From: a virus
Virus record (IMG/VR): IMGVR_UViG_3300031857_000027
Reading direction: 5' to 3' (one strand)
DNA length: 64,000 nt
In this document: positions 21,668-64,000 of the stretch, piece by piece
Layout of the letters: every line of letters begins with the position of its first letter
Numbering within the stretch: the stretch's first letter is position 1
The notes under the pieces: model-generated
What the model saw: only the letters and a program-made list of their open reading frames with translations
Databases searched by the model: none
Told to the model about the DNA's origin: nothing
Made by a program: the position numbers and the translations under genes

Positions 21668-23011
21668 TTACATCAGGTTTGCAATACGGAAGCCACGGTA
21701 GTAGTTGTTGCTCTGTGTTGTCAGAGCGCCGAGGCCTTGATCTGTACCTTCTGCGAATGGATTTGCTACCAGACCGTAACGAGTCTTGAAGCCAATCTTT
21801 GGCTGGAATGTACCAGTATCTACAGCACGAACCATTTGCAGCGGTACGTATGGGCAGTAGAACATACCAGCATCGTATGCGTTTGTGCCTTTGTAACCAA
21901 CTACAGCAAATTCAGATGTCGAACCAACTGGGAAGTATGGGTCGATGTAGACTTTGATACGACCGAAGATTGTACCAGCAAATGTGTTGCCTGTATCGTC
22001 AACTGTCAGTGATACTTGACCAGCAAGTGCTGAGTTATAGTCAAGGATACCAGCCATTGCCAGAGCAGAAGCTACGTCTGAAGAACAGATAACGATGTTA
22101 CCTTTTCCACGACGGGTTGTCTTAGCGATTTGGTTTGCTTCACGCTCAATTTGGAATGCCAGACCTTTGATCTTTTCAACCATCCAACGACCGTTTGAGT
22201 CTGTGTCAAGGTTGAATGCGCCTCTAGTTGTTGTACCTGCTTGGCAACCTGGCTTAGCAATCTTGTAGATTGTACGGATAACTTCACGGTTGATTTCAGC
22301 AAGAATTTCAGCGGACAGAATGTTAGCCAGTTCTGTTTCAGCGTCAAGACCATGAACTGCTTTCAAGTCTTGTGCCAGTTCCATTGAGTATTCTGCTTTC
22401 AGCGCACGTGTACGGGCTGTTACAGTGACTTTCTCAATTGAGAATGCCATTTCTTGGAATGTGTTACCAGCAGCGCCATCACCCAGTGCTTCAGCAGAAC
22501 CAGTTGTCATAGCACCAGTTGGAGCAGCGTTACCTGTAAACAGATAATCTGTTGTGTTACCAGCGATTGTCATTGAAGAAGCAACGATTGCACCGTTAGC
22601 ACCCGAGAATGCTGTGTTTGCTTCGTTGTAGAATGCTTCGTTACCGCCTTGTGATGCATACTTAGTACGCATTGCAAAGATCAGACCTGTAGGACCTGTC
22701 ATTGGCTGAACGCCGCAAACGTCATAAGCGATCAGGTTAGGCAGTGAACGACGAACCAGGCTGATCAGGATTGGATCGAAACCAGCAACTGGACCAGCAG
22801 CAGCAGAACCGCCACTAAAACCACCTGTACCAGCAAAGTTAGTTGGTGAACCAGTTTCACTCAGAATACCTGCTTCTTTCATCATTTCTTGAGCTTGGTT
22901 CTCAAGAATTACCGCTGTAACGGCTTTACGATATGGGTCAGCAATTTTTGGCATATCTGGATGATCCAGTACACCTTCCCATTTGTTTTGTAGATTTTCA
23001 GACAAATACAT
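21668..23011 (-). CDS. gp23: Major capsid protein
   Basis: DPILISLVRR, GVQPMTGPTGLIFAMR, RALKAEYS.ELAQDLKAVHGLDAE and FQPKIGFKTRYG. Confidence 0.98.
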   Translation of the reverse strand: MYLSENLQNKWEGVLDHPDMPKIADPYRKAVTAVILENQAQEMMKEAGILSETGSPTNFAGTGGFSGGSAAAGPVAGFDPILISLVRRSLPNLIAYDVCGVQPMTGPTGLIFAMRTKYASQGGNEAFYNEANTAFSGANGAIVASSMTIAGNTTDYLFTGNAAPTGAMTTGSAEALGDGAAGNTFQEMAFSIEKVTVTARTRALKAEYSMELAQDLKAVHGLDAETELANILSAEILAEINREVIRTIYKIAKPGCQAGTTTRGAFNLDTDSNGRWMVEKIKGLAFQIEREANQIAKTTRRGKGNIVICSSDVASALAMAGILDYNSALAGQVSLTVDDTGNTFAGTIFGRIKVYIDPYFPVGSTSEFAVVGYKGTNAYDAGMFYCPYVPLQMVRAVDTGTFQPKIGFKTRYGLVANPFAEGTDQGLGALTTQSNNYYRGFRIANLM

Positions 23012-23035
23012 CTTTGTATCTCCTTAGTTTATTAT

Positions 23036-26465: not shown

Positions 26466-26476
26466 AATAACCTTCC

Positions 26477-28144: not shown

Positions 28145-28162
28145 TAAAAATCATCCTATATT

Positions 28163-28759: not shown

Positions 28760-30448
28760 TTAGACTGAACCTACTACCTCATTGAAACTTACACCTGTGC
28801 GTACTGCCACGAAGTTAAGTTGAATGAAGTTGATAGAACGAGCAGGTTTGATGTAAATGTCACCAACAAATTCATTACGGTCAATAATTTCTGCTGTGTT
28901 ATTAGTGTCATCGCAGACTACACGGAAGTCTGTGATACCACGACGACCTTGAACATCACGCAGGTAGGGTTCTACAAGAGCGACAAACTGGGCACGTGTG
29001 AACTGATCGTTGAATTCAAACAGAGAGAAACGTGCTGCACGTGCAATTGCTTTTTCAATTGTGATAAACAAACGACGAACATTAATGCGGTCAAATGCGC
29101 TTGGTTTTGCAAGCATTGTTTTGTCACCATACAGAACAGTACCTTCACCTGGGAAAGAAACAACAGGGTTAATGCCTTTTAGATACAGTGTATCACGTTC
29201 TGCTTTAGTTGGATTCCAAGCAAGTTTGATTACATTTTTGATTTGACCACGATTCATACCACCAGGTGAGAACCAAGGGTCACGTTCGTTATCTGTACGT
29301 ACACACAGACCGGCAATATCACCGTTCAATGGAATCCAACGGTAAACATCGTTGTACTTGTCGTATTGATATTTGTATCCAGAATCAATTACTGCATATG
29401 AAGATGATGTCAATGCATCACGGAATGCTGTAACATCGGTTGCTTCAGTTCCGGCATTATCAACAACGTCTGCTTTTTCTGGTGAAATGAATGCAACACA
29501 GTCTTTACGAGTTTCTGCAACATTGCTAATAACATGTGTAGCAATTGTGCTGTTACCTGTACCAGTTACGAGCAATGATACATCAACTGCTTCAGCATTC
29601 TTAAACAGGTCCCAACCAGAAGTGATTTGTGATGAACCTACTGAGCCATCTGCACCATTTGAGAACGAGTATTCTACATTTGCTGTTGTTGTTTTGAATG
29701 CCGATGCGTTAGCAGTAGAACCCCATGCAGTACCAGAACTCAGATTTGCTGTTGCTGGATGTGCAACCCACCATACATATTTTGATTTATTTGAAATAAC
29801 ATTCTTATAGTAGTTGCTATTACCCGAATCATCTTTAGCATCTGATGCTTTTGAAACGAATGCGTATTTTTCAAGAACTGTACCTGCTGTACCTGACCAC
29901 AAACCATCTTCGTCAACGACAACAATATGAACTTCGTCGTTTGCACCACCACGGCTTGCAACGTATGATGATGTTCCAGTGTTTGCGTTAAATTGTGAGC
30001 GATATGGCCATGTTGCAAATGTTCCCAAGTCTGCCACGGAAACTTTTAATGAGTTGCCTAATGCACCAGGGAATTTTGCTGCCCAACCACCGTATGCACC
30101 ATCGGCATACCCGCTGTGATTGTCTGTCCAGTCGTCTTCGTTTCTGATTACTAAAGCACCACCATTTGCAGTAGCGTTGTTAGCACCACCTGGTGTGGCA
30201 CGAACGATTTTTAGATTGTTACCATATGCTAGGAAGTTCGCTGCGGAGAACCAATATTCATAATTTACGCTATCTGGTTTACCGAATGTGTCCACTAGAC
30301 GAACTTCATCGGAAATAGTTGTGACTACACCACATGGTCCCCAATTAAAAGGTCCTGCAAAAGCGCCAGTAGAAGTGGCAACTGAAGGAATAACTGTAGT
30401 CAGATCGATCTCTGATACATTCACTCCAGGTGATAATTGAAATGCCAT
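28760..30448 (-). CDS. gp18: Tail sheath protein
   Basis: SPGV...EIDLT, PWFSPGG.NRG, RINVRRLF and IKPARSINFI.LNFVA. Confidence 0.97.
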   Translation of the reverse strand: MAFQLSPGVNVSEIDLTTVIPSVATSTGAFAGPFNWGPCGVVTTISDEVRLVDTFGKPDSVNYEYWFSAANFLAYGNNLKIVRATPGGANNATANGGALVIRNEDDWTDNHSGYADGAYGGWAAKFPGALGNSLKVSVADLGTFATWPYRSQFNANTGTSSYVASRGGANDEVHIVVVDEDGLWSGTAGTVLEKYAFVSKASDAKDDSGNSNYYKNVISNKSKYVWWVAHPATANLSSGTAWGSTANASAFKTTTANVEYSFSNGADGSVGSSQITSGWDLFKNAEAVDVSLLVTGTGNSTIATHVISNVAETRKDCVAFISPEKADVVDNAGTEATDVTAFRDALTSSSYAVIDSGYKYQYDKYNDVYRWIPLNGDIAGLCVRTDNERDPWFSPGGMNRGQIKNVIKLAWNPTKAERDTLYLKGINPVVSFPGEGTVLYGDKTMLAKPSAFDRINVRRLFITIEKAIARAARFSLFEFNDQFTRAQFVALVEPYLRDVQGRRGITDFRVVCDDTNNTAEIIDRNEFVGDIYIKPARSINFIQLNFVAVRTGVSFNEVVGSV

Positions 30449-38446: not shown

Positions 38447-39004
38447 TTAGGGGTTTTGATTTAACGCTCTTTGAAAATTACTATTTGCCGCTAATACTGT
38501 GTAAACATTTGCTGCCGTTTTTAAAATATTAAATGAATATATGTCAATGGATTCTTGTTGTGTAGTAGAAAAACCAGGAGCTGAATTTCCTGCCCACCAA
38601 GGATTTTGTAAAGTACCATCAACATAAACATTGGCACGATATCTCGTTGCACCATGCTTCAATAAAATTGCCGCAGTAATTGTTTGTCCAATAGTCAACT
38701 GTGAATCAAGAGTATTTTGTGTGTTCGCTCTAAAATTAAAAGTTACATTTGCTGTTGTGTTTGAAGAAAAGAAATAAACAGTATTGTTTTCTAAATCAAT
38801 GTTTACATTACCACCAACAGCAACGGAGTATACATTTGCAGATTCAAGAACTTGACTCAAAGATATGTGAAGGTTTGCAGCAAGAGTGTTGCCTGCAATT
38901 TGACCTGCTACAATATTGTTTGCACGAACGGCATTACCTGCAATTTTGTTTCCAATAATTGCACCATCTGCAATACGACCTGATTCTACTTTTTGATCTG
39001 ACAT
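38447..39004 (-). CDS. Fibre-associated protein (pentapeptide-repeat stalk + beta-sandwich head)
   Basis: IADGAIIGNKIAGNAV repeats; paralogue of 39009-39542. Confidence 0.65.
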   Translation of the reverse strand: MSDQKVESGRIADGAIIGNKIAGNAVRANNIVAGQIAGNTLAANLHISLSQVLESANVYSVAVGGNVNIDLENNTVYFFSSNTTANVTFNFRANTQNTLDSQLTIGQTITAAILLKHGATRYRANVYVDGTLQNPWWAGNSAPGFSTTQQESIDIYSFNILKTAANVYTVLAANSNFQRALNQNP

Positions 39005-39008
39005 TTAA

Positions 39009-39542
39009 TTAACCAAATCCATATGATGTTCTTGATCCTAAAACTGAAAACGCATTGGATCCTGTTTTAATTGATGTGAAGGTATAAACATCTAATTGTT
39101 GATTCGTAAGTGATGCTGCATAAGTCGGTCTAGTGTTACCACTCCATCTTGTATTGCCTGATTGATAAACACCATCAATTGCCAAATTGGCCAAGAACTG
39201 TGTGGAGCCTTGTGTCAATATGAATGCTGTAGTAATTGATTGACCGTTTGCCATAAAACTATTTAAAGTAGTTTCTGGACTTACCCGAATATTAAAAGTA
39301 ACATTATCAGCAACATTACTGGTTACATAATAAACTGAATTGTCATCAAGTGATACATTTACATTACCGCTTGTTGAACTTGAAATCAAATTAGCATTTT
39401 CCAATAAACGATTTACTGGAGCAAGTTTTACAGAAGCAATCGTGTTATTAGCAACCAAATTACCCGTAATTGTACCAACGGCTATTTTGGCTCCAGTAAC
39501 CGAAGTATTGGCAAATCTATTAGTGTTTATTCTTTGCGTCAT
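39009..39542 (-). CDS. Fibre-associated protein, paralogue of 38447-39004
   Basis: Shared LE.AN...GNVN..L....VY...NVTFN.R...GQ.IT...W.GN..P...D.Y.F...KT pattern. Confidence 0.65.
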   Translation of the reverse strand: MTQRINTNRFANTSVTGAKIAVGTITGNLVANNTIASVKLAPVNRLLENANLISSSTSGNVNVSLDDNSVYYVTSNVADNVTFNIRVSPETTLNSFMANGQSITTAFILTQGSTQFLANLAIDGVYQSGNTRWSGNTRPTYAASLTNQQLDVYTFTSIKTGSNAFSVLGSRTSYGFG

Positions 39543-45596: not shown

Positions 45597-45932
45597 TTAC
45601 CTCGTAACTGATGGAAGTACAACAGCAGTGCCTTCTACTACACGTGTCACGGAGTTATCAACAGAGTTTCTGATAATCAAGTCATACACATATCGGCCTG
45701 GCGTTAAATTTGCTGTGTTTGCAGCGGTCATCGATAACGTGATTTGACCGTTCGCATTTCCAGTAATGATTGCGGAAAGTGTATTTGCTGATGAAGAATA
45801 ATATGATTTGCGTAATTGAGCCGATGCAGAATATGTTGTAAGATTTACGGAGTCACCTTGTGTATCATTTACTGTGACAGTTGATGTGAGGTTTGCACCT
45901 TGCTCAATGGTAATTTCTACGTATGCCGCCAA
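45597..45932 (-). CDS. Conserved Ig-like virion protein (TTG start)
   Basis: ITIEQGA..., NLT.YSA.AQLRK, GRYVYD and RVVEG...V.PSVTR; AGGAG SD. Confidence 0.75.
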   Translation of the reverse strand: MAAYVEITIEQGANLTSTVTVNDTQGDSVNLTTYSASAQLRKSYYSSSANTLSAIITGNANGQITLSMTAANTANLTPGRYVYDLIIRNSVDNSVTRVVEGTAVVLPSVTR

Positions 45933-49111: not shown

Positions 49112-49494
49112 TAACTAATTTCCTCAAACGATGAGATAAAGTGTAAACGATTATTTGCATCAGCCCTGACTCTGATGTTATCACCTTCTTCCAAGTAAAG
49201 TGATTTTGACAGAATATCAAGTGATGATTTGGCAGGTACAGTAACTACATTTGCAATTGCATAAACTGAGTTGCCAACACCTGTGCTTGTGTTTTGTGCG
49301 CCAAATTTAAACAGTTCAACCGATACGTTACCAGAATTGGATCCGTCAACATTAGACACAATCAGTGTATTAACCTTAAACACTTTATTTGAGTTGACAG
49401 GATTAACAATCACTGACGATGAAACTGTCGTAACGTTGGCGACGTTACTTTTACCTCTGATATCTGTTACGCTAACAATGTTTGGCGCTGCCAT
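49111..49494 (-). CDS. Small beta-sandwich adaptor protein (MAAPNIV type)
   Basis: MAAPNIV...K(V)NTLIVSNVDG...VPAKSSL...LYLEEGD...SFEEIS. Confidence 0.7.
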   Translation of the reverse strand: MAAPNIVSVTDIRGKSNVANVTTVSSSVIVNPVNSNKVFKVNTLIVSNVDGSNSGNVSVELFKFGAQNTSTGVGNSVYAIANVVTVPAKSSLDILSKSLYLEEGDNIRVRADANNRLHFISSFEEIS

Positions 49495-51339: not shown

Positions 51340-51678
51340 TTAATAAATCTCTGTACCAAAAGCCGAAAAACTCATTAATGAACTATTTGCATTTACCGAA
51401 ATGTTTGAACCAGCATTCATTGTAATGCCAAGTGTTAGTGTAATTGAATCTCTGGCGGGGCAATTCACACGGTATGCAATATAGTTTGTGTTAGAAACTG
51501 CAACACCAGAAACATTCACAGCAATGCTAAATGAGTTTCCAACACCATCGGATTCATTTAAATTAGCAATTGTAATTGATGAGATAATTGCGGAATTACC
51601 AACAGGAACCCGATAAAGATTTGTCAACGTATTGGCTGTTGGATTTGACTGCCCTAAAATTCTATATGATCTTGCCAT
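51340..51678 (-). CDS. Small beta-sandwich adaptor protein (MARSYRILGQ type)
   Basis: Y.ILGQ.NP.A...T.LY.VP, SSITIAN, LTLGIT and FSAFGTEI. Confidence 0.7.
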   Translation of the reverse strand: MARSYRILGQSNPTANTLTNLYRVPVGNSAIISSITIANLNESDGVGNSFSIAVNVSGVAVSNTNYIAYRVNCPARDSITLTLGITMNAGSNISVNANSSLMSFSAFGTEIY

Positions 51679-51692
51679 TTGTTATTTTCCTT

Positions 51693-52181
51693 TTACATTC
51701 CACCAAACAAAAATGCATCATCAAAAATGTCTGGTGGGGACACAATGTTGTTACCACTAACCGCATTGTTTGCTATTAAATTACCAGTAATTTGAGTCAC
51801 TCCAATTTTATTACCTAAAACAGCACCATCTGCGATTTTTGTTGTTGTGACTGCGCTAGTAGCAATTGCGGTTTCAGTTACAGCGCCAGGTAAAATTTGT
51901 GATGCTGAAATTTGATTATATGTAATTGCTACTGGTGCAAGATATCTGACAGTAATATTGTTAGTGCCAAGAGATGGTGCCTCATCAAATGTCATTAAAC
52001 CATTCGTCACAGTGTAAGATGTTGTTGGTGTTTGAATGACACCATTTACAACAACTTCAATATCATTGGCACTATCAATGTCTCTTGTTAAAGTAAATTG
52101 AGTGCAAGCACCTGTACCGTTAAAACTATCAACGGTTATTGTAAAAGCATTTACTTCAGGTTCGTTGCCAATGTATGACAT
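51693..52181 (-). CDS. Fibre linker protein (MSYIGN type)
   Basis: MSYIGNEP start, FNGTG..TQFTL domain, pentapeptide repeats, terminal DDAFLFGGM. Confidence 0.7.
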   Translation of the reverse strand: MSYIGNEPEVNAFTITVDSFNGTGACTQFTLTRDIDSANDIEVVVNGVIQTPTTSYTVTNGLMTFDEAPSLGTNNITVRYLAPVAITYNQISASQILPGAVTETAIATSAVTTTKIADGAVLGNKIGVTQITGNLIANNAVSGNNIVSPPDIFDDAFLFGGM

Positions 52182-52516
52182 TAGGAAATCTCCAGAACTG
52201 AAGCAATGACATCAGCGGAAGATGCTACAGATGTATTTACTGCTAAGTAATCTCCTGCTTCCAACACAAGTTTTTGATCGCCACCAATAGGTACTAATGC
52301 ACCACCGGGAGCAATCGTAGCACTCTGAACCAAATACACGTTCGGTGCGGCAGCACCAGCGCAGGTTAAAATAACGTTTGCAGCGATTGGTGAACTTGTA
52401 ATGTTAGCGATTGTCATACCGATAACTGTGGCTTGCACACCAGCAGCAGCCGCATATACGTTCTGAGCAGTCGTTCCTGCCGCTTTGAGAACACTGTTTT
52501 TAAAATTGTTAGCCAT
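52181..52516 (-). CDS. Small beta-sandwich adaptor protein (MANNFKN type)
   Basis: MAN.FKN, TVIGMTIAN, KLVLEAGD and SVLEIS. Confidence 0.7.
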   Translation of the reverse strand: MANNFKNSVLKAAGTTAQNVYAAAAGVQATVIGMTIANITSSPIAANVILTCAGAAAPNVYLVQSATIAPGGALVPIGGDQKLVLEAGDYLAVNTSVASSADVIASVLEIS

Positions 52517-52545: not shown

Positions 52546-53406
52546 TTAACCTAAGGCAATCGCAAATGCAATTGATGAGTCAATTGCTGCTGAAATTGTG
52601 CCATAAATTGCAGTATTTGCTTGACCCACCAAGAGTGTAATGTTACCTGTGCTTGTATTTAAGTTTGCTGCATTAACAGAACCAGCAACACTTAAATCAT
52701 CAAATCCAAGTGAGTCTAAAGTAACGTTACCAGATATTGATAGATTACCATAAATGAATGCATCACCACCGACCGCCAGATTGCTTGTGATATTTACACT
52801 TGCGGCATTACCCGTGAGTATTAATCCACTTGTGACGTTCAGTGTGGAGATATTCGCCAATGGCGCAACGATGCTACTACCAACATTCAGTGTCGTTGTA
52901 ACATTTGCCCTTGTAATATTACCAGATATAGTTACATTTGAAGCAAACGTATTTCCAACAACAACTAAAGTTTGAGCAATATTTGCATTACCTGCCACAG
53001 CCAAATCATTAAAACCAATGGCATCTAAAGTCGTATTACCTGAAATGGTCAGATTACCGTGTAAGAATGTATCACCACCAACAAACAATCTATTAGTAAC
53101 ATTAACCGAAGTTATGTTTGCGATTACGTTAGCATTTCTACCAATCGTTATATCTCTAGGTACCGTAACATCATTGTCTAAGAAAAGAACATTAGCAAGA
53201 TTTGCGGTGTTTGCTCTTAGTGTATTAATGTTTGCTAATGTGCGAACATTCAGAGAAGCAGCAGAACCTTCGATAAAAATCGAAGAGTTCATCACAAAAC
53301 CACCGCCCGTATTATCGGTCAGATTATTTGCAACCGCAACAAGAGTAGATGTTGTGGTTAGCCACTCTTCAAAAGTATTGGCTGTTGAAAGTTGATCTAT
53401 TGCCAT
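52546..53406 (-). CDS. Asn-rich short fibre / beta-helix protein
   Basis: N-terminal NTFEEW...T, repeated GNLTISGN units, terminal IAFAIALG. Confidence 0.65.
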   Translation of the reverse strand: MAIDQLSTANTFEEWLTTTSTLVAVANNLTDNTGGGFVMNSSIFIEGSAASLNVRTLANINTLRANTANLANVLFLDNDVTVPRDITIGRNANVIANITSVNVTNRLFVGGDTFLHGNLTISGNTTLDAIGFNDLAVAGNANIAQTLVVVGNTFASNVTISGNITRANVTTTLNVGSSIVAPLANISTLNVTSGLILTGNAASVNITSNLAVGGDAFIYGNLSISGNVTLDSLGFDDLSVAGSVNAANLNTSTGNITLLVGQANTAIYGTISAAIDSSIAFAIALG

Positions 53407-53631: not shown

Positions 53632-56600
53632 TTAAACCGTAGCCTCTGGCAAAGCAACAACACGTAATTGAGAAACTAAAGGCACATTAACTGTGCTTGA
53701 ACCAAACATAACTATCTTAATTGCAAATGACATAAAGTCTTTATATTCAACACCATTAGCACCAGTGTATCTTACTCTATTATTTGGGATACCTGACCCA
53801 TAAGTTCCTGGAGCAAAGATCACTTCAAAAAAATCACCTCTGCCATTAGAAACGGCATTGAGTGATGTTGAGTTTTCTGTCATTAATTGATAATTGTTGT
53901 CATCGAATTCAGAAGAATCTGATTCAGAAAGTAACTTGTAATACACAAGAATTCCTGAACCCGGTGGGCGATAAATGTCCATATACACACGTAAATCGCC
54001 AGCATCAAAACCAGGAGCAAGTTTCACACGTTTCGTAATATAACGAATATTTGAATTACCCCCTGACGATTTATCTTCACCATTATACACTGCGGTAGCA
54101 CCCGAACCACTACCACCAGAAATTGTCAATATTGGTGAAGTATAATAACCTGAACCTGGATTAGTTAATTCAAGTCGAACAATTTTATCTCCATCGGTTA
54201 CTGCTCTTGCAGCGGCACCACGATCATCGTTTGTTCCATCTGGGTAAGTAAACGTTACGCTTCCATTTGTTGTGTAGCCAGAACCTTGATTTACAACGAT
54301 AAACCCTGTATTTTGTAACTCCATATTATTGATTCTATTTTCAATCGTCAGAAGGTTTAGACGAGTGATATCAATCATTGGAGAAACATCTGGATTATTT
54401 GTTGTAAGTGTAGTTCTTACTAAAAACGTGGTATTTCCTGTGGTTTTATTAAGAATTCTTCTACCAAAACCATCATCACAACTATAGTCTCTATTTTTGA
54501 TTAAAGGTAAAAGTTCATGAGTTCCGCCTGTGTTAAGTTCAGAAATGAACTCATAAGAAACATCAGCACCCGATAGAGTTGCATCTGTAGACATAAGTTG
54601 GAAAGTATCAAAAACAGTATTTGCCGAATAATCTGTCATATCAACTTCAAAGAAGCCTTGTCCAGTACCATTTGTAAACACTCTTTTCTGAATACTAAAC
54701 ATGATGTCTTGTTCTTGATCGGCAGTCCAAGTAGAACCGTTTTGTGATAAGAACAGAGACCCTGTATAAGGTTGTTCTGAAATCTTCACAGTAGTTCGAA
54801 TATCGGTTGCACCAATTTGAGCAATATAACACTCATATCCATTACTATTTGAAACAAGTACAAATGAATGTTCTCCTGGTAGTAACAATATTGGAACATC
54901 AAATTTAAACTCAGTGTATTTGTTTGAATCTGTTACATCAGGATTATCAGTTATTGTTACTTGATCTGGAGTCAGAGTTTTTTCGGCATATGGATAAACC
55001 ACAGCAGAAGAAGGGTACCCGTTATCAACTGGTCGGATTTGACAAGTCACTGGAGCAGATATGTCTTTTGTTTTAAAGCAAACACGAACAGAATCAATCA
55101 CGATACCTTGTGGATATTGATTTGGATTAATCAGGAATGTTTGTGCAAGAGGATCGTAGTATCCAATAACAACGTTGTTCCTTCTAGTTGTAACGACCGA
55201 TGATTTAATTGAAGTAACTGTCTCTGTTGTGGATTCATTTACGGTTGATCTTGAAACAGTAGGAGTAAAGACTGTAACAGAAGTTGATTGTTTAGTATCT
55301 ACTTGACCCTGTGACAAAAACTTCGCATCTCCATTTGTTCTGGAGTTTTCAAGGTTATTAAACGCATCATCAATTAAGCGTAAAACTTTTTCACCCGTTC
55401 TAAACACATCTGCGGGTAAAAAGAAAATAGCGGCTGTTGTGCCTTCTTTTGTTGTCTCTAAATCTCCTATTGTATAAACAGAAGTTGAATCTGGATTAGT
55501 TGTCCAAGTTCCATTAATTGTTGCAACACGTGTAGAAGAATCATATGAACTTATTGTAACAGACTGTCCCTTACCTGTTCCAGCAAGAATTAGAATTCTC
55601 TTATTCACATAATCGGCAGCATTAGTAGCACCACCAGCAGAAAGAGCAAGTGTGATTGTAGTAGCCGAACCAGCAAGAGCAATACCTGTTTGGTGATACC
55701 ATTTGTCTGCTCTATATGTTCTTCCTGTAATATCACCTTTAACCCAAATACCATTTGTTGCACACTGATCCCAAGAACCAAACGATGCTGATGGTTGCAT
55801 ATTTACAGAGAACAAATTGTTATTTGAGGTCAATGCTGCACCACCAATTCCAATTACTGTGTCTGTGCTTAAAAGTTCTGTGTTTGAAGATGCTCTATAA
55901 AAAGTTACAGTTTCAGAATTTGAAATTGTTGTTTGATATTGCAAGTTATTTTGAACCATCTCAAAACGATTTACTTTTGCAATTTTATCATTAACATTTA
56001 CATTATCAAAAAATGCATTAAGTGTCGTAAACGGTTTGAATTTGCTACCTATAACCAATATGTTTCTTGCTCTCATAAACTGAACAATACTTACATCGAT
56101 CAATCTGTCACCAAAAGATTGGGTAAGTTGTTTAGGTACAATTGTGCTAATAATATTGGTGCGTGTTTTGTCTAATGTTTCAGTTACAACTTCTTTTTTT
56201 CTTTCGGTAAAATCAACTGAGGCGGTGACCGCAATGAGGCCACCGCCAGTGGGTTTCCCACCACTGTTTTCGAATCCTTTTGCCCAACTATCATTACGAT
56301 CGGTGCCGTCTTTATTTACAACATTTATACCAAGAAGTTCTCTCTGACCAAATTCCACAGCCTCAACACCAACAACTTGAGTGTTCCAGTTGCCATAATC
56401 AGTAAACTTCATTGCTGACCATGCATCTGCTGCCTCAGCACCACCGGACAAATCAATATTTTGTGATTCTAAACGAGTTTCGGAACGCCAGACATCAGAA
56501 GGCGGGTCAAGAACAATTGACCCAATATAATTAACAATATTAAATGGGTTAATATTCATTGTTTTTGATGCTCTGTTCTGCACAACAAAAGGAGTAATTG

Positions 56601-59600
56601 TTGAAGAAAGCAACATCAATGGTCCATTAATCTCAACATTTTGATTTGAAGTTGAATTATTGGAAAATACTCTTGTTGAAGCAAGATTAAATGAACCACG
56701 TAGAGTGCGTGTAACAATATCAATTGCTGAATTAAAATCAGGTTTTACTATATCAGCAGCACTTTTATCGATGAACGAATCAACAAATACACCATTTTTT
56801 GGTCTTGCTATACCAAATGAATCACGAACTGTTCTATCGTTTTTATTGATTGTGGCAAGTTCAGCAATTGATAAAGATGTATATAACTCCAGATTTTGTA
56901 TTCTCTTATCCAATCTGGCAATATCTTTCATTGTATATCTTCTGTGATTAAATGCTTGAATTTTTACAGAAGAAATTATGGTTACATATGGAGGATAAGT
57001 CAAAATATACAGAGTCATTGAATCATCTGGTTCAACTGGAACAACAGGATTAAATGCAGGAACTCCTTGTAATACCAGAAACTCTCTATTTTTCGTTAAA
57101 ACAATTCTGTCAATTCTAGGTAAATAATACTCAAAATCCATTAGAACATCTAAACCTGGTTCGGCAACTTTTGGTCCTAAAACGGCTTCATCAACATCCA
57201 AAATAAAGTTTCTTGCAATCGTGTCTGCTGATGCACTACTTCTAACTGATGCTCGAACCGGACGAAAATCTAAGTAATCCCTCAAGAAAATTTTTGCACC
57301 ACTTTGCAGCGTGTAGATGGGTATCATATCATAACTGACACCTCTACCGCCATTTTCTTGTGTACCAAGTCTTGTATAAGAATCAATATCGAAATATCCA
57401 GAACCGTTTGAAGAAAATCTATTATAACGAATAACTAAAGGACCTATTGGTGCGTTTTGTCCGGGTCTTAAAGTAATCGATGACCAATCATAATAAGAAT
57501 CCTTTTGTCCAGTATTCAAAATATATCTGGCAGTAACGTTTGATGACTCGGTGAGAGCATTGTATACAGATGTAGTTACGTTAGCACCATTTAAATCAAA
57601 AATAGCATTAATTGAATGAACATCCGTTACGTATAACCATTGTGGTTGCCCTGGTCTTCTTTCAACTATTGATTGATTGATAATAGTTTGACCATCAAAT
57701 GGAGCCACGTTCGCATTATTGTTAGCAGCAAAAACTTTTACGTAAGTTCCTAGGCCTATACCCCATCCTGGGTCAACTAACTGGGTGTTTGCTTTAACAA
57801 ATGTTTTTGTTTTTGAAGTTGGGTTAGAAGCATTTACAACAGCATAAATGTTTGCTGTCATATTCGCACCATCTGTTACCGTGATTGTTCTTGATGAAGT
57901 ATCAACAGTAAAGTTTTCAGCCGGAATAGTTCTACCTACTTGATACCAACTTGTGCCAGAATTAGTTGGGATAACTTGATAATATCTTTGTTTTGAATCA
58001 GTTGTAGTTGCACTTTGTAGAGTTTCACCAGTACCTAAAGATAATGCTTGCGATACTCCGCCGGTAAATGTGACAGTTTGATATAATCTCTTATATGAGT
58101 ATGAAAAATCACGTATAGTATTATCAGCAACATTTTCTACACCAACTCTAATTAACAAAGGTTCTCTTATTGTATCTCTAATTGAAGCAGGCTGAAATAG
58201 CCCTTTAGATTGAACAAGTGTGGTTGTAGATACACCAATTTGTTCATCTTTTGATAAAGGTGAAACATTTGCCAATGCAATACGAGAATTTCCAGCACCC
58301 AATCTAACAAGAGATTCAGCATCAGCGAATTTAGGATCAAGTATGAATCTAAAATTGGCTCCAACTGCGGTGCTAAAAGGTGGGAAAACGGTAGCAGTTA
58401 AACTTGATCCAACATAATCAGTAATGATTCTTGTTGAATTATCGCTAGGTGAGTTTAGTGGCGCACCACCAACAATTCTCAATGACAAGCCTTTATATAC
58501 ATCATTATTTGCAGCAAATCCAGTAGGAAATACCACTGTGCTTGTGGAGCCACCTGTTGCATTTATACCATAACCACCATTTGCCGCTATAGGACGAGTA
58601 TTTACATCAGTTAAATATACTTTGTAAATATAGTTATTACTCTCACTTGTGTTGCCCGAAACGGAATAAAAAGAAACAACTTTAATTTTTGTGTTTCCAA
58701 TTGTTGTGTTTGCGTAAATTGCAGCATTTCCTGTTCCAACATAATTAGTTATTTGACCGGTATTCAATAATGAAATATCGGCATTAGCATATTGGTTTGT
58801 TGCAAAATTACCATACATGCCATTGGCAAAAATATAATAACCGTAATCAACCTCAACTCTACGATTTTCTACAGTCTCCGTAGTTCTTGGTTTTGGTACA
58901 GTTATTGTTGTTGGTGCATCAGTTCTAAATTCATAACCTTTAATATATGCTTTACCTGAACCTAAAGTAACATTAGCAAAAGCCGAATTCGAAACGCTGT
59001 CGGTGAGTTCTAATGGGAAATTTTTAATAACATAATCACCAGACTCATCTTCTGTTCTGCGGGCAAATTCATCACCTAAAGAAGCATAGATTGGAGTATT
59101 AACAGTTTTTTGTGGAACACCACCATCCATGATGCTTAACTCCACAAATTGTTTCAAATCTGTGCTACCAATCGGTCTTGTCTCCAGTGTCATCAAAACT
59201 TTATAGCGGTCTGCACCTGGTGCTTGGAAATTTGAAGAGCCTTGTGCTGGATCAAGAAGTGTAGTGTCTTCTGTATAATCAACCAAATCTTCACTCACAG
59301 AAAAACCAACAATTGCACTACCCTCACGACTGTATTTGTCAACCGCCACACTTTGTGGCTGTACTTTTACAAAAATTCCATCGTAATAAAATACACCTTC
59401 ATTTACAGAAAATGATTGACAGTTTCCAGTAGCATTTGCCGAAGCAGTATTTGCATAATAAGTTATTGCTTGTGGGTCAGTATTTGAAGTGTAGATAGTT
59501 TCATTAACTGTAAATGGATCGCCATATAATTGATTGACAATAAATGTGATTGGCTCATTATTTGCACTAACAGCACCATACGATTTTAAAACATATGCAC

Positions 59601-59913
59601 GTTTTGTATTGGCCGAATTAATAATTACTTGTTTATCAAAATTTAAATATGAAATATCTTGGCCGGAATAACTTGAAGCAATGTTAATATACGCTACATT
59701 TTGAATTGTGATTTGCCCACCTGTAACTACGGAACCAGTTTTGAACACATGGTCGCCAAACTTTTTAATCTGATCTTGTAAGGTACTTTGAAGTTGCGTC
59801 AATTCACGGGATTGAACAGCATTTCCCGGCTTAAACAAAACCCTATAATAATTTTTATCGTCGTCAAAATCGTCGTAGTAAGGATCTTGATTAAAATTTG
59901 TAGTAAGTGCCAT
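53632..59913 (-). CDS. Large VrlC/DUF4815-like baseplate structural protein
   Basis: PYYDDFD..KNYYRVLFKPG.AVQ.RELTQLQ, APGADRY, YLPRID, RYTMKDI, DPLAQTF and SQNGSTWT. Confidence 0.85.
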   Translation of the reverse strand: MALTTNFNQDPYYDDFDDDKNYYRVLFKPGNAVQSRELTQLQSTLQDQIKKFGDHVFKTGSVVTGGQITIQNVAYINIASSYSGQDISYLNFDKQVIINSANTKRAYVLKSYGAVSANNEPITFIVNQLYGDPFTVNETIYTSNTDPQAITYYANTASANATGNCQSFSVNEGVFYYDGIFVKVQPQSVAVDKYSREGSAIVGFSVSEDLVDYTEDTTLLDPAQGSSNFQAPGADRYKVLMTLETRPIGSTDLKQFVELSIMDGGVPQKTVNTPIYASLGDEFARRTEDESGDYVIKNFPLELTDSVSNSAFANVTLGSGKAYIKGYEFRTDAPTTITVPKPRTTETVENRRVEVDYGYYIFANGMYGNFATNQYANADISLLNTGQITNYVGTGNAAIYANTTIGNTKIKVVSFYSVSGNTSESNNYIYKVYLTDVNTRPIAANGGYGINATGGSTSTVVFPTGFAANNDVYKGLSLRIVGGAPLNSPSDNSTRIITDYVGSSLTATVFPPFSTAVGANFRFILDPKFADAESLVRLGAGNSRIALANVSPLSKDEQIGVSTTTLVQSKGLFQPASIRDTIREPLLIRVGVENVADNTIRDFSYSYKRLYQTVTFTGGVSQALSLGTGETLQSATTTDSKQRYYQVIPTNSGTSWYQVGRTIPAENFTVDTSSRTITVTDGANMTANIYAVVNASNPTSKTKTFVKANTQLVDPGWGIGLGTYVKVFAANNNANVAPFDGQTIINQSIVERRPGQPQWLYVTDVHSINAIFDLNGANVTTSVYNALTESSNVTARYILNTGQKDSYYDWSSITLRPGQNAPIGPLVIRYNRFSSNGSGYFDIDSYTRLGTQENGGRGVSYDMIPIYTLQSGAKIFLRDYLDFRPVRASVRSSASADTIARNFILDVDEAVLGPKVAEPGLDVLMDFEYYLPRIDRIVLTKNREFLVLQGVPAFNPVVPVEPDDSMTLYILTYPPYVTIISSVKIQAFNHRRYTMKDIARLDKRIQNLELYTSLSIAELATINKNDRTVRDSFGIARPKNGVFVDSFIDKSAADIVKPDFNSAIDIVTRTLRGSFNLASTRVFSNNSTSNQNVEINGPLMLLSSTITPFVVQNRASKTMNINPFNIVNYIGSIVLDPPSDVWRSETRLESQNIDLSGGAEAADAWSAMKFTDYGNWNTQVVGVEAVEFGQRELLGINVVNKDGTDRNDSWAKGFENSGGKPTGGGLIAVTASVDFTERKKEVVTETLDKTRTNIISTIVPKQLTQSFGDRLIDVSIVQFMRARNILVIGSKFKPFTTLNAFFDNVNVNDKIAKVNRFEMVQNNLQYQTTISNSETVTFYRASSNTELLSTDTVIGIGGAALTSNNNLFSVNMQPSASFGSWDQCATNGIWVKGDITGRTYRADKWYHQTGIALAGSATTITLALSAGGATNAADYVNKRILILAGTGKGQSVTISSYDSSTRVATINGTWTTNPDSTSVYTIGDLETTKEGTTAAIFFLPADVFRTGEKVLRLIDDAFNNLENSRTNGDAKFLSQGQVDTKQSTSVTVFTPTVSRSTVNESTTETVTSIKSSVVTTRRNNVVIGYYDPLAQTFLINPNQYPQGIVIDSVRVCFKTKDISAPVTCQIRPVDNGYPSSAVVYPYAEKTLTPDQVTITDNPDVTDSNKYTEFKFDVPILLLPGEHSFVLVSNSNGYECYIAQIGATDIRTTVKISEQPYTGSLFLSQNGSTWTADQEQDIMFSIQKRVFTNGTGQGFFEVDMTDYSANTVFDTFQLMSTDATLSGADVSYEFISELNTGGTHELLPLIKNRDYSCDDGFGRRILNKTTGNTTFLVRTTLTTNNPDVSPMIDITRLNLLTIENRINNMELQNTGFIVVNQGSGYTTNGSVTFTYPDGTNDDRGAAARAVTDGDKIVRLELTNPGSGYYTSPILTISGGSGSGATAVYNGEDKSSGGNSNIRYITKRVKLAPGFDAGDLRVYMDIYRPPGSGILVYYKLLSESDSSEFDDNNYQLMTENSTSLNAVSNGRGDFFEVIFAPGTYGSGIPNNRVRYTGANGVEYKDFMSFAIKIVMFGSSTVNVPLVSQLRVVALPEATV

Positions 59914-59923: not shown

Positions 59924-61495
59924 TTAAAATCTAACAATAAGTTTGATATTTTCAGCCTGACCTTCTGCTCTTGTGGTCTTAGTCGCATTTTGCGTATATA
60001 AAATATCACCTGAATATGGTTCAAATTCTGGATTCTGTACAGTTACAACCAGACGATCAGAAACACCAGAACTAGCTCCTCTCAAAAGAACACCGGTTCT
60101 AAATGTACCTCTCACATTCGTCAATCTAACTTGATCAAATGTTTGATCTAAAACTGAACCATGAGCAATCGTGTTGGCTGCCGAAGTATCATTAGGTAAA
60201 CCTTGATAAGCAAATTCATCAATCGAATAACTCGAACCAGCGGTTATCGTTAAGACAGTTGCTTGAGAGACAACCGGACTAGCATTAGCAGGTGATACAA
60301 CCGTAGATTCACCATATTTATGAGGGTTTACAAAGATACCATATTGTCTAAAAGTTGTATTTGCTGGTATCTTGCCATTTTCAGTTGAATCGATTTCACC
60401 AATTCTTGATACAACCATAACACTATTTGCACCCAATTCTCTTGCTGGATTGTATGCGTGACCATATTTCATATCACGAATTACACGAATAGACGCATTT
60501 GAACCTGTACCATAAACAAAAGCATTTGCTCTTGAATAATTAATTCCAATCGTAGTTACAGTTACTTTAGTTAAAAATCCATTAGCATTAATTGATGCGG
60601 CAGCCACGGCACCAGTTCCATCACCATCGATAAAGATTCGTGTTGTTAGTGCGATTTGATTTGCGGTTGTATTTCCACCGCCAGCAGAAGTTGTCGCAGT
60701 GGATAAAAATATGTTATTATTAGGCACATCTATTCTGGAAATGAATGTGCCAGGTGCTATTCCTGTACCCGAAACTGTCATGTTGGCCGTAACGTTTGTT
60801 GTGTTGGCTAAATTCAGTCTTGTGCAACCAGAAGAAAAAACAGGAATGACTGCTACATTATTCTCATAAAAACCGGAACCCATATTTTCGACAACGATTG
60901 TTGTAAGTTCGCCATCAACAACACCAATAAGATTTATGTTATAGTCTAATTGATTTGTACTTGATGGGGCTGGAATCCAATCGTCTGCCAAAAATTTATT
61001 CGATGGCTTAACATTAAACATGTACTTCCAAATGTAACCATCAGAGGTTGCGATGTTACCATTAGAAGATGTATAATCGCCAGTAGGTTCTACGGTTGAA
61101 TTTGCGGATACATTGTTAGACAGACACTTGTAAACATTTCGCTCAGATGTGAAAACATACATCGGTTTGACGTTTAGTGAATTGTTTCCAGTTAGCAACT
61201 CATCCAAGTCAATCAAATCATCATACTGTTTATACTTTGTATTTGCCGTCCAAGATATTTTAGGTATGACAAGTTCAACATCATTACCAGTAATCTTTTT
61301 GGCTGCAATCATATTTTCCCATGCAAGTTTTTCATCGTTCACGGAATCTACGATTGAATTGGGAACATTTTCGTCAAAATAAGGTAAGTGATTGCCAATA
61401 AAAACGTAACCAATTTCTGGCGCAGGTTCATAAAAAGATTCTTTAAACTGAACCGCAGAGATATATGGTATTTTTTTAGTCGTAACTGAAGTCAT
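59924..61495 (-). CDS. gp8: Baseplate wedge subunit
   Basis: VYKCL.N, DGYIWKYMF, GH..NP.RELG, FRQYG and SGDILY..N.....R...Q.E.IKLI..F. Confidence 0.9.
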   Translation of the reverse strand: MTSVTTKKIPYISAVQFKESFYEPAPEIGYVFIGNHLPYFDENVPNSIVDSVNDEKLAWENMIAAKKITGNDVELVIPKISWTANTKYKQYDDLIDLDELLTGNNSLNVKPMYVFTSERNVYKCLSNNVSANSTVEPTGDYTSSNGNIATSDGYIWKYMFNVKPSNKFLADDWIPAPSSTNQLDYNINLIGVVDGELTTIVVENMGSGFYENNVAVIPVFSSGCTRLNLANTTNVTANMTVSGTGIAPGTFISRIDVPNNNIFLSTATTSAGGGNTTANQIALTTRIFIDGDGTGAVAAASINANGFLTKVTVTTIGINYSRANAFVYGTGSNASIRVIRDMKYGHAYNPARELGANSVMVVSRIGEIDSTENGKIPANTTFRQYGIFVNPHKYGESTVVSPANASPVVSQATVLTITAGSSYSIDEFAYQGLPNDTSAANTIAHGSVLDQTFDQVRLTNVRGTFRTGVLLRGASSGVSDRLVVTVQNPEFEPYSGDILYTQNATKTTRAEGQAENIKLIVRF

Positions 61496-61504
61496 AAATT
61501 ATAT

Positions 61505-64000
61505 TTATTGCTTAAATATGATTGCTGTTTGTGCATTGGATGTTTGATACCAAGACACAGGATTAATTGTAATGACAGCACCAGAACCGGCACTATTAGG
61601 TGCAACATCTGGAGTATAGTAATATTCTCCAGCACCTTGCAAAACACTATTGCTATTTAGTGTAACTTTACGAATTGCACCATTACCAGGATAAACTTCA
61701 ACAAGCGCATTAGCTGCGGTATTTCTACCAGTAAATCCAACGGTAATTACTGCATTTGTTTGATCGTTCGCAACAGGCGTAATTGTAAATACGGCGTTTG
61801 TATATGAGTTACTGTTTGCTGTAAGTGTCACAGAAGCAGTCTGACCAACGTTTGCCGAAGTATTAACTACTAAGTTTGCTGCTGCTTTTGCATTAGCACT
61901 ATATCCTATGATAAAAGATGCTACAGTTGATGGTGACTGCAATGTATCAGTGGCCGGGTCAAGAATTCCCACAACAATAATATCTGCACCATTTGCATAT
62001 AAGCCAACATGATTCACAGTGGTTCTTACAATCGCACCAAAAGCACCGTTAACCTCAACCGTACAGTTTGCACGAATGTTTGCAGTTGCTTGTGTTGTCG
62101 AAAACACCACGTTACCATTTACGTATCCCGAACCACCAACAATTGGGCGAACTTCTGTCACCGAAACGGTTGTCACATTTGGTGTCACGGTTGTTGGTGG
62201 AATTCTGTATAAACCAACATCGGTAACTACTATTGATTCTATATTAATTGCACCGTTTGAATGCACAGTATAAGTTGCATTCGCATCCCTAACAGGAAGA
62301 CCACCGCTAAACACCAGATACCCATTCGCAAGACTATTTCCCGTGAAAAGATTTCCAGCAGTGTTTGATACAACCGATATTACAGAGTTTGGTGCTGTAT
62401 TTAAAATAGCAGTGGGTGTAGAACCATTAGCATACAAACCAGGATCAACAATCGTAATCTTACGAATTTGTCCATCCAAAGGTTTCATTTCTAATGTGAA
62501 CGAAGCATTACCAACATTTGCTGTTGCTAATGGTGTACCTTTGTATAAACCACCACTTACCAAATGCACGTTGTATACAAGGCCTTGGGAATTAACAACA
62601 ATTATAGCATTTGCACCAACGTTGTCACTTCCTGCTCCACTAAATTGAACGTATCCATTTACACCATATGCAAAGGCGTTTACAGAAATTGAGTTTACTT
62701 GTGCAGATAATGGTGGGAATGTTTCAACACGAATTGTTGCTTGACGACTTGGATCACCTCCAGAAATTACAAGAACGCCATTTGAATGTCCGTTACCTGT
62801 ACTGTTTACAGTAACCGAAGAAATTACAGCATTTGCGTTTGTATTTGGTCTGGCAGTTGGTGTAGATTGATACAGTCCAGAATCAATCACTTCAACTGTG
62901 TTGACAACCGTGTTTGGATGAACAATTAATCTTACGTTTGCATCTCTCAATGGTGAACCGCCAGAGAATACCAGCCAACCATTTGCATAACCTTGACCAC
63001 GAATTGGTATACTAATACCATTTGCATATACAACACGATGTGGATTACTATCTGGTATAGCGATTGGTTTATTAGCATACAAACCACCAGATACAAATGT
63101 TAATGTTCGAATTGTACCATTTGAATTAAATACTTCTACGTTTGCGATTGCTGGTATTGCTTCATCTGTACCAGAGAATGTCATTACACCATTTTCATAT
63201 CCAGAACCACCAGCAGTGATTGTGAGACTTGTAATTTGGCCGCCACCATTTGAAAATACTAGATAACCATTTGAGTATCCGGAACCAGCATTTGCAATTC
63301 TTAAATTAGAAATGTTTGATGTCGTAATTAAAGATGTGTTGCTGACAATCGTGTTAATTTTTCTAATTTCACCATTTACCGCAATCAGTGAACCTAATGA
63401 CAAAATACCTTTTGTGTTAGCGATATTATATTTTGTACTATTTCCAGTAACAACAACTCTACCATTTCCAACATTGACTGTGCCAGCAATTGTATTTGCC
63501 GTAAAACTCTGAATTGCAACATCAGTAAGTTCAACCAGATTTTCTTTATTATATAAAGCATAGTTGACCATGCCAACAGGATGTAACAGTTGCTTCAGCA
63601 TTGTTTTGTATTTGCTGAACTCTGTTTTTGAAGAAATTACATAAGAATAATCAACGTAGTAATCTTGGCCTTGAAGTTTTCTTTCGAAAGAAGACAATAT
63701 AGAATCGGATGTTGTCCAACGACCGGGCGCAGAAGAATACGAGCGTTCAATTTCTGCTGTTGCTGTTGCTGTGCCATCTCCACCAACAATACTTACGGTC
63801 GGGTTATATTCATAACCAGAACCAGGATTAATAACTTTAATTGAAATAATTTGTCCATTGGCAGTAAATCCTGTTGGTGTTAATGTTTCACCATCACCTA
63901 TTAGCGAATCAATTTGAATATTCGCACCCGAACCTGTATTAGAACTAACTGAAATCGTAGGAAACTTACCTTGTGTGTAACCATAACCACCAAGTGGCCA
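61505..64000 (-). CDS. gp7: Baseplate wedge initiator gp7-like protein, C-terminal part (open to window end)
   Basis: Frame stays open from 63697 to 64000 (WPLGGYGYTQG...GRWTTSDSILSS). Contains LQ..DYY.DYSYVI...LHPVG. Upstream of gp8. Confidence 0.75.
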   Translation of the reverse strand, partial: WPLGGYGYTQGKFPTISVSSNTGSGANIQIDSLIGDGETLTPTGFTANGQIISIKVINPGSGYEYNPTVSIVGGDGTATATAEIERSYSSAPGRWTTSDSILSSFERKLQGQDYYVDYSYVISSKTEFSKYKTMLKQLLHPVGMVNYALYNKENLVELTDVAIQSFTANTIAGTVNVGNGRVVVTGNSTKYNIANTKGILSLGSLIAVNGEIRKINTIVSNTSLITTSNISNLRIANAGSGYSNGYLVFSNGGGQITSLTITAGGSGYENGVMTFSGTDEAIPAIANVEVFNSNGTIRTLTFVSGGLYANKPIAIPDSNPHRVVYANGISIPIRGQGYANGWLVFSGGSPLRDANVRLIVHPNTVVNTVEVIDSGLYQSTPTARPNTNANAVISSVTVNSTGNGHSNGVLVISGGDPSRQATIRVETFPPLSAQVNSISVNAFAYGVNGYVQFSGAGSDNVGANAIIVVNSQGLVYNVHLVSGGLYKGTPLATANVGNASFTLEMKPLDGQIRKITIVDPGLYANGSTPTAILNTAPNSVISVVSNTAGNLFTGNSLANGYLVFSGGLPVRDANATYTVHSNGAINIESIVVTDVGLYRIPPTTVTPNVTTVSVTEVRPIVGGSGYVNGNVVFSTTQATANIRANCTVEVNGAFGAIVRTTVNHVGLYANGADIIVVGILDPATDTLQSPSTVASFIIGYSANAKAAANLVVNTSANVGQTASVTLTANSNSYTNAVFTITPVANDQTNAVITVGFTGRNTAANALVEVYPGNGAIRKVTLNSNSVLQGAGEYYYTPDVAPNSAGSGAVITINPVSWYQTSNAQTAIIFKQ

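Follow-up and report, generated by a model that had tools for sequence, protein, structure and literature searches.

Ala-Asn enrichment on the exposed virion proteins of a T4-like phage lineage, with a small GT-A glycosyltransferase as a candidate modifying enzyme

We analysed 64,000 nucleotides of a T4-like myovirus (IMG/VR virus record IMGVR_UViG_3300031857_000027; this whole stretch is called the window below), in which every gene lies on the minus strand, the strand to which all window coordinates given here refer. On the exposed virion proteins of this phage and of a group of its relatives, the dipeptide Ala-Asn was about twice as frequent as expected, and the window also encodes a conserved glycosyltransferase with a glycosyltransferase A (GT-A) fold at 1261..2076. 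We suggest, with a probability of roughly 0.4, that a phage factor recognises Ala-Asn as the acceptor at which the virion surface is covalently modified, with the GT-A protein as the candidate enzyme.

Ala-Asn excess in the virion proteins

Dipeptide counts were compared with 500 composition-corrected shuffles made within each virion protein, leaving out a 1930-residue fibre and the collagen-like proteins. The set [AGS]N was seen 270 times against 170 expected (observed/expected ratio, O/E, 1.59; z = 9.5), a count reached in none of the 500 shuffles, so the high [AGS]-N content that an earlier note on this DNA had described for the predicted surface proteins survives correction for composition. 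The reversed set, N[AGS], stood at O/E 1.05, and [AGS]N in the non-virion proteins stood at 0.97, in line with the impression that the replication proteins lack the signature. The N-x-S/T sequon had been counted as part of the same signature; it was not enriched in the virion proteins (O/E 0.93-1.04), and such excess as there was proved to be confined to one protein of 286 residues.

Ala-Asn was the main driver of the signal (2.22-fold), with Gly-Asn at 1.5-fold and Ser-Asn marginal at 1.19-fold. At 124 occurrences against 58 expected (z = 8.7), Ala-Asn ranked first among the 266 testable dipeptides, the next of which reached z = 3.5. Every dipeptide remained at or below z = 4.8 in six control phages, and Ala-Asn itself ranked between 149th and 250th in T4, P-TIM40 and ACG-2014f. 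A multiple-testing artefact was rejected on the basis of this first rank and the lack of a comparable outlier in the controls. The signal was directional, Asn-Ala being present at 1.1-fold, and local composition, with Ala and Asn merely sharing loops, was rejected because Asn-Ala was not enriched. The DNA word GCNAAY occurred 124 times in frame 0 and 8 and 9 times in the other frames, with all synonymous codons in use, indicating that selection acts on the protein and not on the DNA word. A DNA-word or codon-pair effect was therefore rejected; the highly expressed tube and portal genes, moreover, showed no excess. Selection on the motif is at the protein level.

The residues that follow Ala-Asn were also biased. 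Thr, Val and Gly were favoured, Thr at +1 by 2.0- to 2.9-fold in four phages, and charged residues (0.23-fold) and Pro (0.24-fold) were avoided, an avoidance missing at other Asn residues. Ala-Asn was not coupled to the sequon, since it carried N-x-S/T no more often than other Asn did in 12 of 13 phages.

To compare parts of the particle, the capsid, sheath, gp7, gp8, DUF4815 and fibre proteins were classed as exposed, and the portal, tube, neck and other components as internal. The Ala-Asn O/E in the window was 2.33 for the exposed parts (fibre left out) versus 0.99 for the internal parts. The corresponding values were 2.23 and 1.20 in G001 (a complete 169-kb relative), 1.92 and 1.01 in Caulobacter phage Cr30, 1.64 and 0.54 in Sinorhizobium phage phiM12, and 1.92 and 0.63 in RHph_I1_18; both classes were close to 1 in T4, P-TIM40, ACG-2014f, OC, BUDD and BUCT608. 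The enrichment is restricted to exposed components and variable regions, with exposure assigned by component and not per residue.

The positions of the motif were compared among orthologues. For the baseplate wedge protein gp8 (59924..61495; 11 Ala-Asn), the motif-rich phages carry 11, 8, 11, 8 and 6 Ala-Asn, and motif-poor BUDD, P-TIM40 and ACG-2014f carry one each. The 2093-residue DUF4815 structural protein (53632..59913; phrog_358; 20 Ala-Asn) has 20-27 in motif-rich versus 3-8 in motif-poor phages. Most Ala-Asn alignment columns were found in one phage only (41 of 51 for gp8 and 109 of 124 for DUF4815), and the DUF4815 protein has 3 of its 20 sites in common with the 40%-identical G001 orthologue, which itself carries 18. 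In the orthologues compared between the window and G001, which are 52% identical, Ala-Asn is preserved at 27 of 97 sites; Asn is kept at 52% of Ala-Asn sites versus 47% of other Asn, close to the overall identity of 52%. Because sites shift while the twofold density stays, fixed and conserved packing positions cannot explain it. Judging from the alignments, the density is kept high by continual gain and loss of sites.

Individual proteins contributed unequally. In the tail sheath protein gp18 (28760..30448), eight Ala-Asn lie mainly in variable regions, and the major capsid protein gp23 (21668..23011) has 14 [AGS]N against 7.3 expected, the extra sites being found in the insertion domain only (residues about 120-190); the motif strings quoted by the earlier note from gp23, gp18 and gp14 are all present. 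The gp7-like baseplate protein (61505..64000, running past the window end) has 47 [AGS]N against 24.3 expected, part of them in internal repeats. Smaller proteins of the fibre region with an excess were two paralogous fibre-associated proteins of 185 and 177 residues (38447..39542; phrog_5906; [AGS]N O/E 2.19 and 1.82), a fibre-assembly-like protein of 111 residues (45597..45932; phrog_1084/3304; 6 against 2.8 expected) and a protein of 127 residues with no family match (49111..49494; 9 against 4.4 expected). Three small tail-fibre-like proteins of 112, 162 and 111 residues are encoded at 51340..52516. Next to them lies the 286-residue fibre-like protein (52546..53406), weakly similar to bactofilins, for which the earlier counts of about 24 [AGS]-N and 16 N-x-S/T sites turned out to be exact.

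The 1930-residue fibre (39570..45362), which had been described as carrying Asn at the same heptad position, does so: it contains about 105-130 heptads of the form A-N-[AS]-[AG]-[FY]-[IAV]-[HQ] and 132 Ala-Asn, and 105 of its Asn residues have another Asn seven residues downstream. Successive Ala-Asn are spaced by 7 residues in 59 cases and by 14 in 26. Family matches of this protein were weak, and no solved homologue of the heptad region was found. Three collagen-like proteins (phrog_2295; Ala+Gly+Ser fraction about 0.55) are also encoded among the fibre genes, at 35851-38298, 46466-49111 and 50410-51327.

Distribution of the motif and the transferase

The comparison covered 12 cultured phages and several IMG/VR genomes, each represented by its structural module or its whole genome. 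Besides the motif-rich genomes named above, exposed parts were enriched in Stenotrophomonas phage DLP6 (O/E 1.81), G002 (2.64) and G007 (1.71); Melnitz stood at 1.43, and the range for OC, BUDD, BUCT608, P-TIM40, ACG-2014f, T4 and G006 was 0.74-1.08. Genome-wide in G001, the virion homologues carried 166 Ala-Asn against 79.4 expected (z = 9.7), and O/E was 0.98 for non-virion proteins and 1.02 for unassigned open reading frames (ORFs). A wider scan was centred on DUF4815 orthologues, the gp8 alignment being too divergent for this purpose. The 80 IMG/VR loci obtained had a bimodal distribution: about 38 had O/E values of 1.6-2.6, with z as high as 15.7, and about 35 had values of 0.5-1.1. Our literature search found no description of an Ala-Asn signature or of Asn-linked glycans on phage virions.

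The transferase gene was present in every motif-rich genome in which it could be checked (the window, G001, G002, G007, DLP6, Cr30, phiM12 and RHph_I1_18) and also in Ochrobactrum phage OC. Its orthologues in DLP6, Cr30 and phiM12 are syntenic, lying between gp46/PDF and gp45. It was not found in motif-poor T4, P-TIM40, BUDD, BUCT608 and the 99%-complete G006, nor in Melnitz; ACG-2014f has only a 30%-identical relative adjoining tail-collar genes, and G006 shows a clean gap where the gene would sit, between the HTH_39 gene and gp45. Ten IMG/VR fragments were also searched. Seven gave no match, and the five that were checked (G008, G009, G011, G012 and G013) lack gp45 as well, so that they are uninformative on the presence of the transferase.

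A tree of gp23, gp20, gp18 and gp17 gave one supported clade (98/98) with five unresolved lineages. The lineage of the window, G001 and G007 and that of Cr30, DLP6, phiM12 and RHph_I1_18 have both transferase and motif; OC has the transferase and no motif, G006 has neither, and Melnitz with the cyanophages has no transferase and no motif or a weak one. In the DUF4815 tree the motif-poor G006 subclade is nested within the motif-rich group, which suggests a second, separate loss. The motif-rich genomes are thus a subset of the transferase-bearing genomes.

Three of the 208 ORFs of G001 occur in DLP6 and RHph_I1_18 and not in G006, Melnitz, BUDD or BUCT608, namely the transferase, an ORF of 111 residues and an RNA-binding-like protein of 576 residues. 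The 111-residue ORF (G001 45429-45764; phrog_26159; no Pfam match) is the sole gene of the 208 that matches the motif distribution perfectly, being found in DLP6, RHph_I1_18 and G007 and not in OC, G006, Melnitz, BUDD or BUCT608.

The candidate enzyme and rival explanations

The transferase gene (phrog_1574) lies between an HTH_39 gene and DUF3310/gp45. We are confident from the structural model that it encodes a protein of the GT-A fold, with a predicted sugar-transfer activity. The AlphaFold model (predicted local distance difference test, pLDDT, 95.9; predicted template modelling score, pTM, 0.92) shows one Rossmann-like alpha/beta/alpha domain, in agreement with solved GT-A structures. A Foldseek search against the PDB returned 145 matches at E <= 0.001, and the first-listed were all GT-A. 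The best was A197 of the archaeal virus STIV (Sulfolobus turreted icosahedral virus; PDB 2c0n; Foldseek E 1.3e-8), which was also the best profile match (E 0.04) at 15% identity and a template modelling (TM) score of 0.45-0.62; it was followed by Mnn9, LH3, COLGALT1, mimivirus R699 and ppGalNAc-Ts. A test for membership of GT62 (Pfam PF03452, Anp1/Mnn9) failed, at 26.3 bits against a gathering cut-off of 28.8 and over residues 58-103 only. Across 51 diverse homologues R63, D82-A-D84, E226 and H251 did not vary, and D227 was almost invariant. The family is very large (7995 cluster representatives at E <= 0.001), and many members (P0243, P0244, P0260, P0284, P0285, P0288 and others of 650-1180 residues) carry intein- or homing-endonuclease-like insertions that split the match into two to four stretches.

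Some features around the gene are recorded here. A GC-rich hairpin followed by a T run at 2100-2145 (minus strand), between the HTH_39 gene and the transferase start, resembles an intrinsic terminator, so that the transferase may be transcribed from a start of its own. The T4 late promoter TATAAATA gave no clue to timing, with 3 matches in place of 4.3 expected by chance and none near the transferase. The structural neighbours of the enzyme include collagen hydroxylysine glycosyltransferases, and the phage also has a 2-oxoglutarate (2OG) oxygenase resembling prolyl 4-hydroxylase beyond gp45 (L003:14977-15552).

The exposed proteins (capsid, sheath, baseplate periphery and fibres) carry Ala-Asn with a preference for Thr, Val or Gly as the next residue and an avoidance of charged residues and Pro. 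According to the proposal, selection holds the motif density high as single sites come and go. A phage-encoded cytoplasmic factor would read the motif during assembly, the motif would serve as acceptor for covalent modification of the particle surface, and the best candidate for the enzyme would be the conserved GT-A protein, supplied with a host or phage nucleotide sugar. Any modification of the motif is plausible at most, and the choice of Asn as the modified atom and of the GT-A protein as the enzyme is inferred. The most specific form of the proposal, in which a T4-like lineage, widespread in environmental samples and in culture and including DLP6, Cr30, phiM12 and the freshwater-type group of the window, sugar-coats its capsid, sheath, baseplate rim and fibres at A-N-[T/V/G] by means of the small GT-A protein, we consider rather unlikely as a whole.

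A number of observations weigh against the proposal, and several of them favour a structural or physicochemical cause, which we consider nearly as likely as modification. According to this explanation no enzyme is involved: Ala-Asn-Thr/Val would be an idiom favoured in beta-rich, fibrous and loop regions of exposed proteins, useful for packing, turns, Asn ladders, solubility or carbohydrate contact, and spread by domain duplication and lineage drift. Asn in the fibre and in the 286-residue family is periodic or invariant, as expected of packing residues. The fibre Asn takes the same place in each of the heptads, with small residues and an aromatic residue around it, like the core or flank of a coiled coil, and Asn accounts for 8 of the 21 invariant columns of the 286-residue family. 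The monomer model of the latter protein is too poor (pLDDT 71) for judging exposure; it has helices at its two ends only and a middle without assigned strands. Trimeric coiled coils of the N@d type, as in the stalks of trimeric autotransporters, likewise repeat a conserved Asn in a fixed place of the heptad, followed by a small residue. They differ from the fibre, in which almost all heptads contain Asn and the hydrophobic residue conserved best is the Phe/Tyr three positions after Asn; this arrangement makes it more likely that the fibre Asn flanks the core, with a register that is ambiguous from sequence. Both sets of Asn, those in the heptads of the fibre and those in the invariant columns of the 286-residue family, are probably structural, whether modified or not.

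Most [AGS]N sites of gp23 are also kept in motif-poor cyanophages, and these common sites look structural. Internal repeats or paralogy inflate the counts in gp7 and several small proteins, and other fibres are biased too, Gly-Asn being seen 39 times against 21.8 expected in a P-TIM40 protein and 9 times against 3.6 in T4 gp5. Of the suggestion of dense acceptor sites all over the particle, the restriction of the signature to virion proteins is borne out; in the fibre and the 286-residue protein the Asn residues look structural. In contrast, the structural explanation does not account readily for orthologues of the same fold (gp8, DUF4815 and gp18) that lack the excess in sister clades, nor for site positions that are not conserved, with Asn evolving at the background rate. 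The excess also remains after removal of the fibre and collagen-like proteins, and Ala-Asn is directional, has a distinct downstream context and is the single outlier among the dipeptides tested.

Further points against the proposal concern the link between transferase and motif and the enzyme itself. With about 5-7 independent lineages, the association was not significant (one-sided Fisher test, about 0.14-0.3). OC carries the transferase (47% identity) and lacks the motif (O/E 1.04), and Melnitz has no transferase and yet shows a mild excess (O/E 1.31-1.43). The tie between motif and glycosyltransferase drawn by the earlier note was thus borne out in one direction, in that no motif-rich relative without a DxD transferase was found among the genomes where this could be checked, and not in the other, OC being discordant. 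Matches to solved transferases have TM-scores of only about 0.45, and the acceptor cannot be read from the GT-A fold. We know of no GT-A enzyme that makes an Asn-linked glycan. Finally, all relatives have the transferase gene beside gp45, within the replication module.

This setting is the starting point of a further explanation, namely that the transferase glycosylates phage DNA at a hydroxylated pyrimidine, that its co-distribution with the motif reflects shared ancestry and that the motif has some other cause; we regard this as possible but somewhat unlikely. Besides the conserved position between gp46/PDF and gp45, several observations speak for it. The gene order in DLP6 is an NTP-transferase/APH fusion, a Tet_JBP dioxygenase (E 8e-19), PDF and the transferase, and in Cr30 a Tet_JBP gene lies 5 kb from the transferase. 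Such a layout, with a dioxygenase and a sugar-activating enzyme near the transferase, fits DNA glycosylation and also counts against virion modification. The DLP6 genes upstream of PDF and the GT-A gene occupy positions 25452-28525 of its record, where the dioxygenase is annotated as an SNF2 repair protein. The DLP6 set looks like a DNA-glycosylation cluster of the base-J-like or 5-hydroxymethylcytosine type, for which a published description was not found. Many members of the transferase family have intein-like insertions, and the window has a GmrSD_N-like/HNH gene (2536-3912; 458 residues) 0.5 kb upstream of the transferase gene, with a weak N-terminal match (E 3e-4, below cut-off) and a C-terminal HNH nuclease half. 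GmrSD enzymes cleave glucosylated DNA. The JGT-like enzymes associated with TET/JBP (5mYOX) proteins have the GT-A fold and an R...DxD...EDY pattern in common with the transferase, which has R63, D82-x-D84 and E226-D227-Y. Such GT-A enzymes with R...DDD...EDY/F occur in TET/JBP-associated phage DNA-glycosylation clusters (bioRxiv 10.1101/2023.12.21.572611).

Several facts speak against DNA as the acceptor. The R, DxD, xED and C-terminal His residues form the core of all GT-A enzymes and therefore do not identify a DNA enzyme, and in structure the protein comes closest to a viral enzyme associated with capsid glycosylation and to glycosyltransferases that act on proteins. The TET/JBP neighbourhood of DLP6 and Cr30 is not general: the complete G001, phiM12 and RHph_I1_18 have the transferase without Tet_JBP, a ThyA-family enzyme was not found in G001, DLP6 or OC, and the window shows neither TET/JBP nor a ThyA-type hydroxylase. 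Several transferase-bearing genomes have no known route to a glycosylatable base. Melnitz, conversely, has a TET homologue and no transferase.

We consider it improbable that another, non-sugar factor (an assembly chaperone, a protease, another Asn-modifying enzyme or the 111-residue protein of phrog_26159) reads the motif: the distribution of this ORF fits that of the motif better than does the transferase, which OC also has, but the protein has no recognisable fold and is a weak enzyme candidate, and the 2OG oxygenase, Asp/Arg-hydroxylase-family, DUF4422 and methyltransferase genes of the window phage were rejected as they are absent from G001, DLP6 and RHph_I1_18.

Other genes, known systems and significance

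A six-gene sugar-like cassette (12958..18689) had been named by the earlier note as a possible source of an unusual sugar. Its members are an SDR protein, an RfbH (3-dehydrase type)/DegT-type protein, a HddA-like heptose kinase, a split thiamine diphosphate enzyme resembling E1 alpha and beta, and a HpnJ-like B12 radical S-adenosylmethionine protein; all family matches were below equivalog cut-offs, and no nucleotidyltransferase is present within it. The cassette is inserted between gp55 and a DUF6561 gene, a site that is empty in P-TIM40, G001 and G006. We rejected it, since it is absent from motif-rich G001, DLP6 and RHph_I1_18 and from every other genome compared, and is therefore not part of any shared system. 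A different sugar set, consisting of a cytidylyltransferase-cupin fusion, a GT2 protein and an SDR epimerase, lies next to RNase H in G001 (94420-96938). A search for HMW1C/NGT-type (GT41) genes elsewhere in the genome had also been suggested; at E <= 0.1, GT41 (PF13844) was not found in the complete G001, a search in which control genomes matched, nor among the window ORFs.

The remaining gene content is that of a T4-like phage, and many metagenome contigs carry the same phage as the window. Its gp23 is 64.7% identical to that of Cyanophage P-TIM40 and about 60% identical to that of DLP6. The replication and accessory module (311-21021) includes gp45, the transferase gene, the HNH gene, CobS, PDF, gp46, gp47, gp55, the cassette, UvsW and UvsY. 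The virion module (21052-64000) contains gp3, gp23, gp22, gp21, gp20, gp19, gp18, gp17, gp16 and gp15-13, followed by the collagen-like proteins, the 1930-residue fibre, many small fibre proteins, the DUF4815 protein, gp8 and gp7. A DNA-binding protein of 144 residues (32139-32573; phrog_3636) is encoded between the small and large terminase genes. In the replication module, a protein of 442 residues (7739-9067) matches Pfam DruA of the Druantia defence system (E 6.5e-20, above cut-off) and has a 75% orthologue and a 39% paralogue in G001; the possibility that it is a hidden homologue of the DLP6 TET enzyme was rejected, as there is no similarity.

By analogy, the nearest precedent for the proposed virion modification would be the non-sequon N-glycosylation of chlorovirus capsids. 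Chloroviruses N-glycosylate capsid Asn residues outside N-x-S/T, in the contexts NTGT, NTET, NTAT, NIPG and NVAT (PMC9614988, PMC5408694). The major capsid protein Vp54 of chlorovirus PBCV-1 is modified by virus-encoded cytoplasmic glycosyltransferases, and its N-T-x-T, N-I-P-G and N-V-A-T contexts resemble the A-N-[T/V/G] found here. Chloroviruses are, however, giant viruses of eukaryotes with four to six fixed sites on one protein, whereas hundreds of shifting sites on many proteins are seen in this phage; their glycans are proven and those proposed here are predicted. A small residue may also precede the chlorovirus Asn.

An essential protein of STIV, A197 "possibly glycosylates B345", which is the capsid protein of this virus (PMC10551542). 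It is, like the phage enzyme, a small stand-alone DxD GT-A protein, and the STIV major capsid protein is glycosylated; it differs in coming from an archaeal virus at low identity, and its own acceptor is likewise putative. HMW1C and ApNGT (GT41) resemble the proposal in that they are cytoplasmic and transfer hexose independently of lipid to many Asn residues of a fibrous surface protein. They differ in their GT-B fold, TPR-like (tetratricopeptide repeat) domain and N-x-S/T sequon, and with no GT41 in G001 and no enrichment of N-x-S/T two of their defining features are missing here. The mycobacteriophage system is reportedly O-linked and confined to Ser/Thr-rich C-terminal extensions of few proteins, with transferase genes near the structural genes, whereas here the motif centres on Asn, its sites are dispersed and the transferase gene belongs to the replication module. 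As cited in later papers, mycobacteriophage glycosyltransferases decorate capsid and tail proteins and alter surface recognition (Freeman et al. 2023, cited in PMC12801897 and PMC11256854).

If the most specific form of the proposal is true, no earlier case of Asn-directed virion glycosylation in a bacteriophage, or of a protein N-glycosyltransferase of the GT-A type, would be known; it would imply a new sequon and a new enzyme class, with a motif density that evolves like a glycan shield. Even without modification, one dipeptide at twice its expected density on exposed virion proteins throughout a clade needs an evolutionary explanation; to our knowledge, such a dipeptide pattern maintained through turnover has not been described. 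Since the signature is found in cultured phages, the claim lends itself unusually well to testing: motif and transferase occur together in three of them, and OC, BUCT608, BUDD and Melnitz are close cultured controls without one or both. If true, the surfaces of soil and water phages would be chemically masked in a way missed by genome annotation, which would bear on adsorption, particle stability, grazing and the immune recognition of therapeutic phages such as DLP6.

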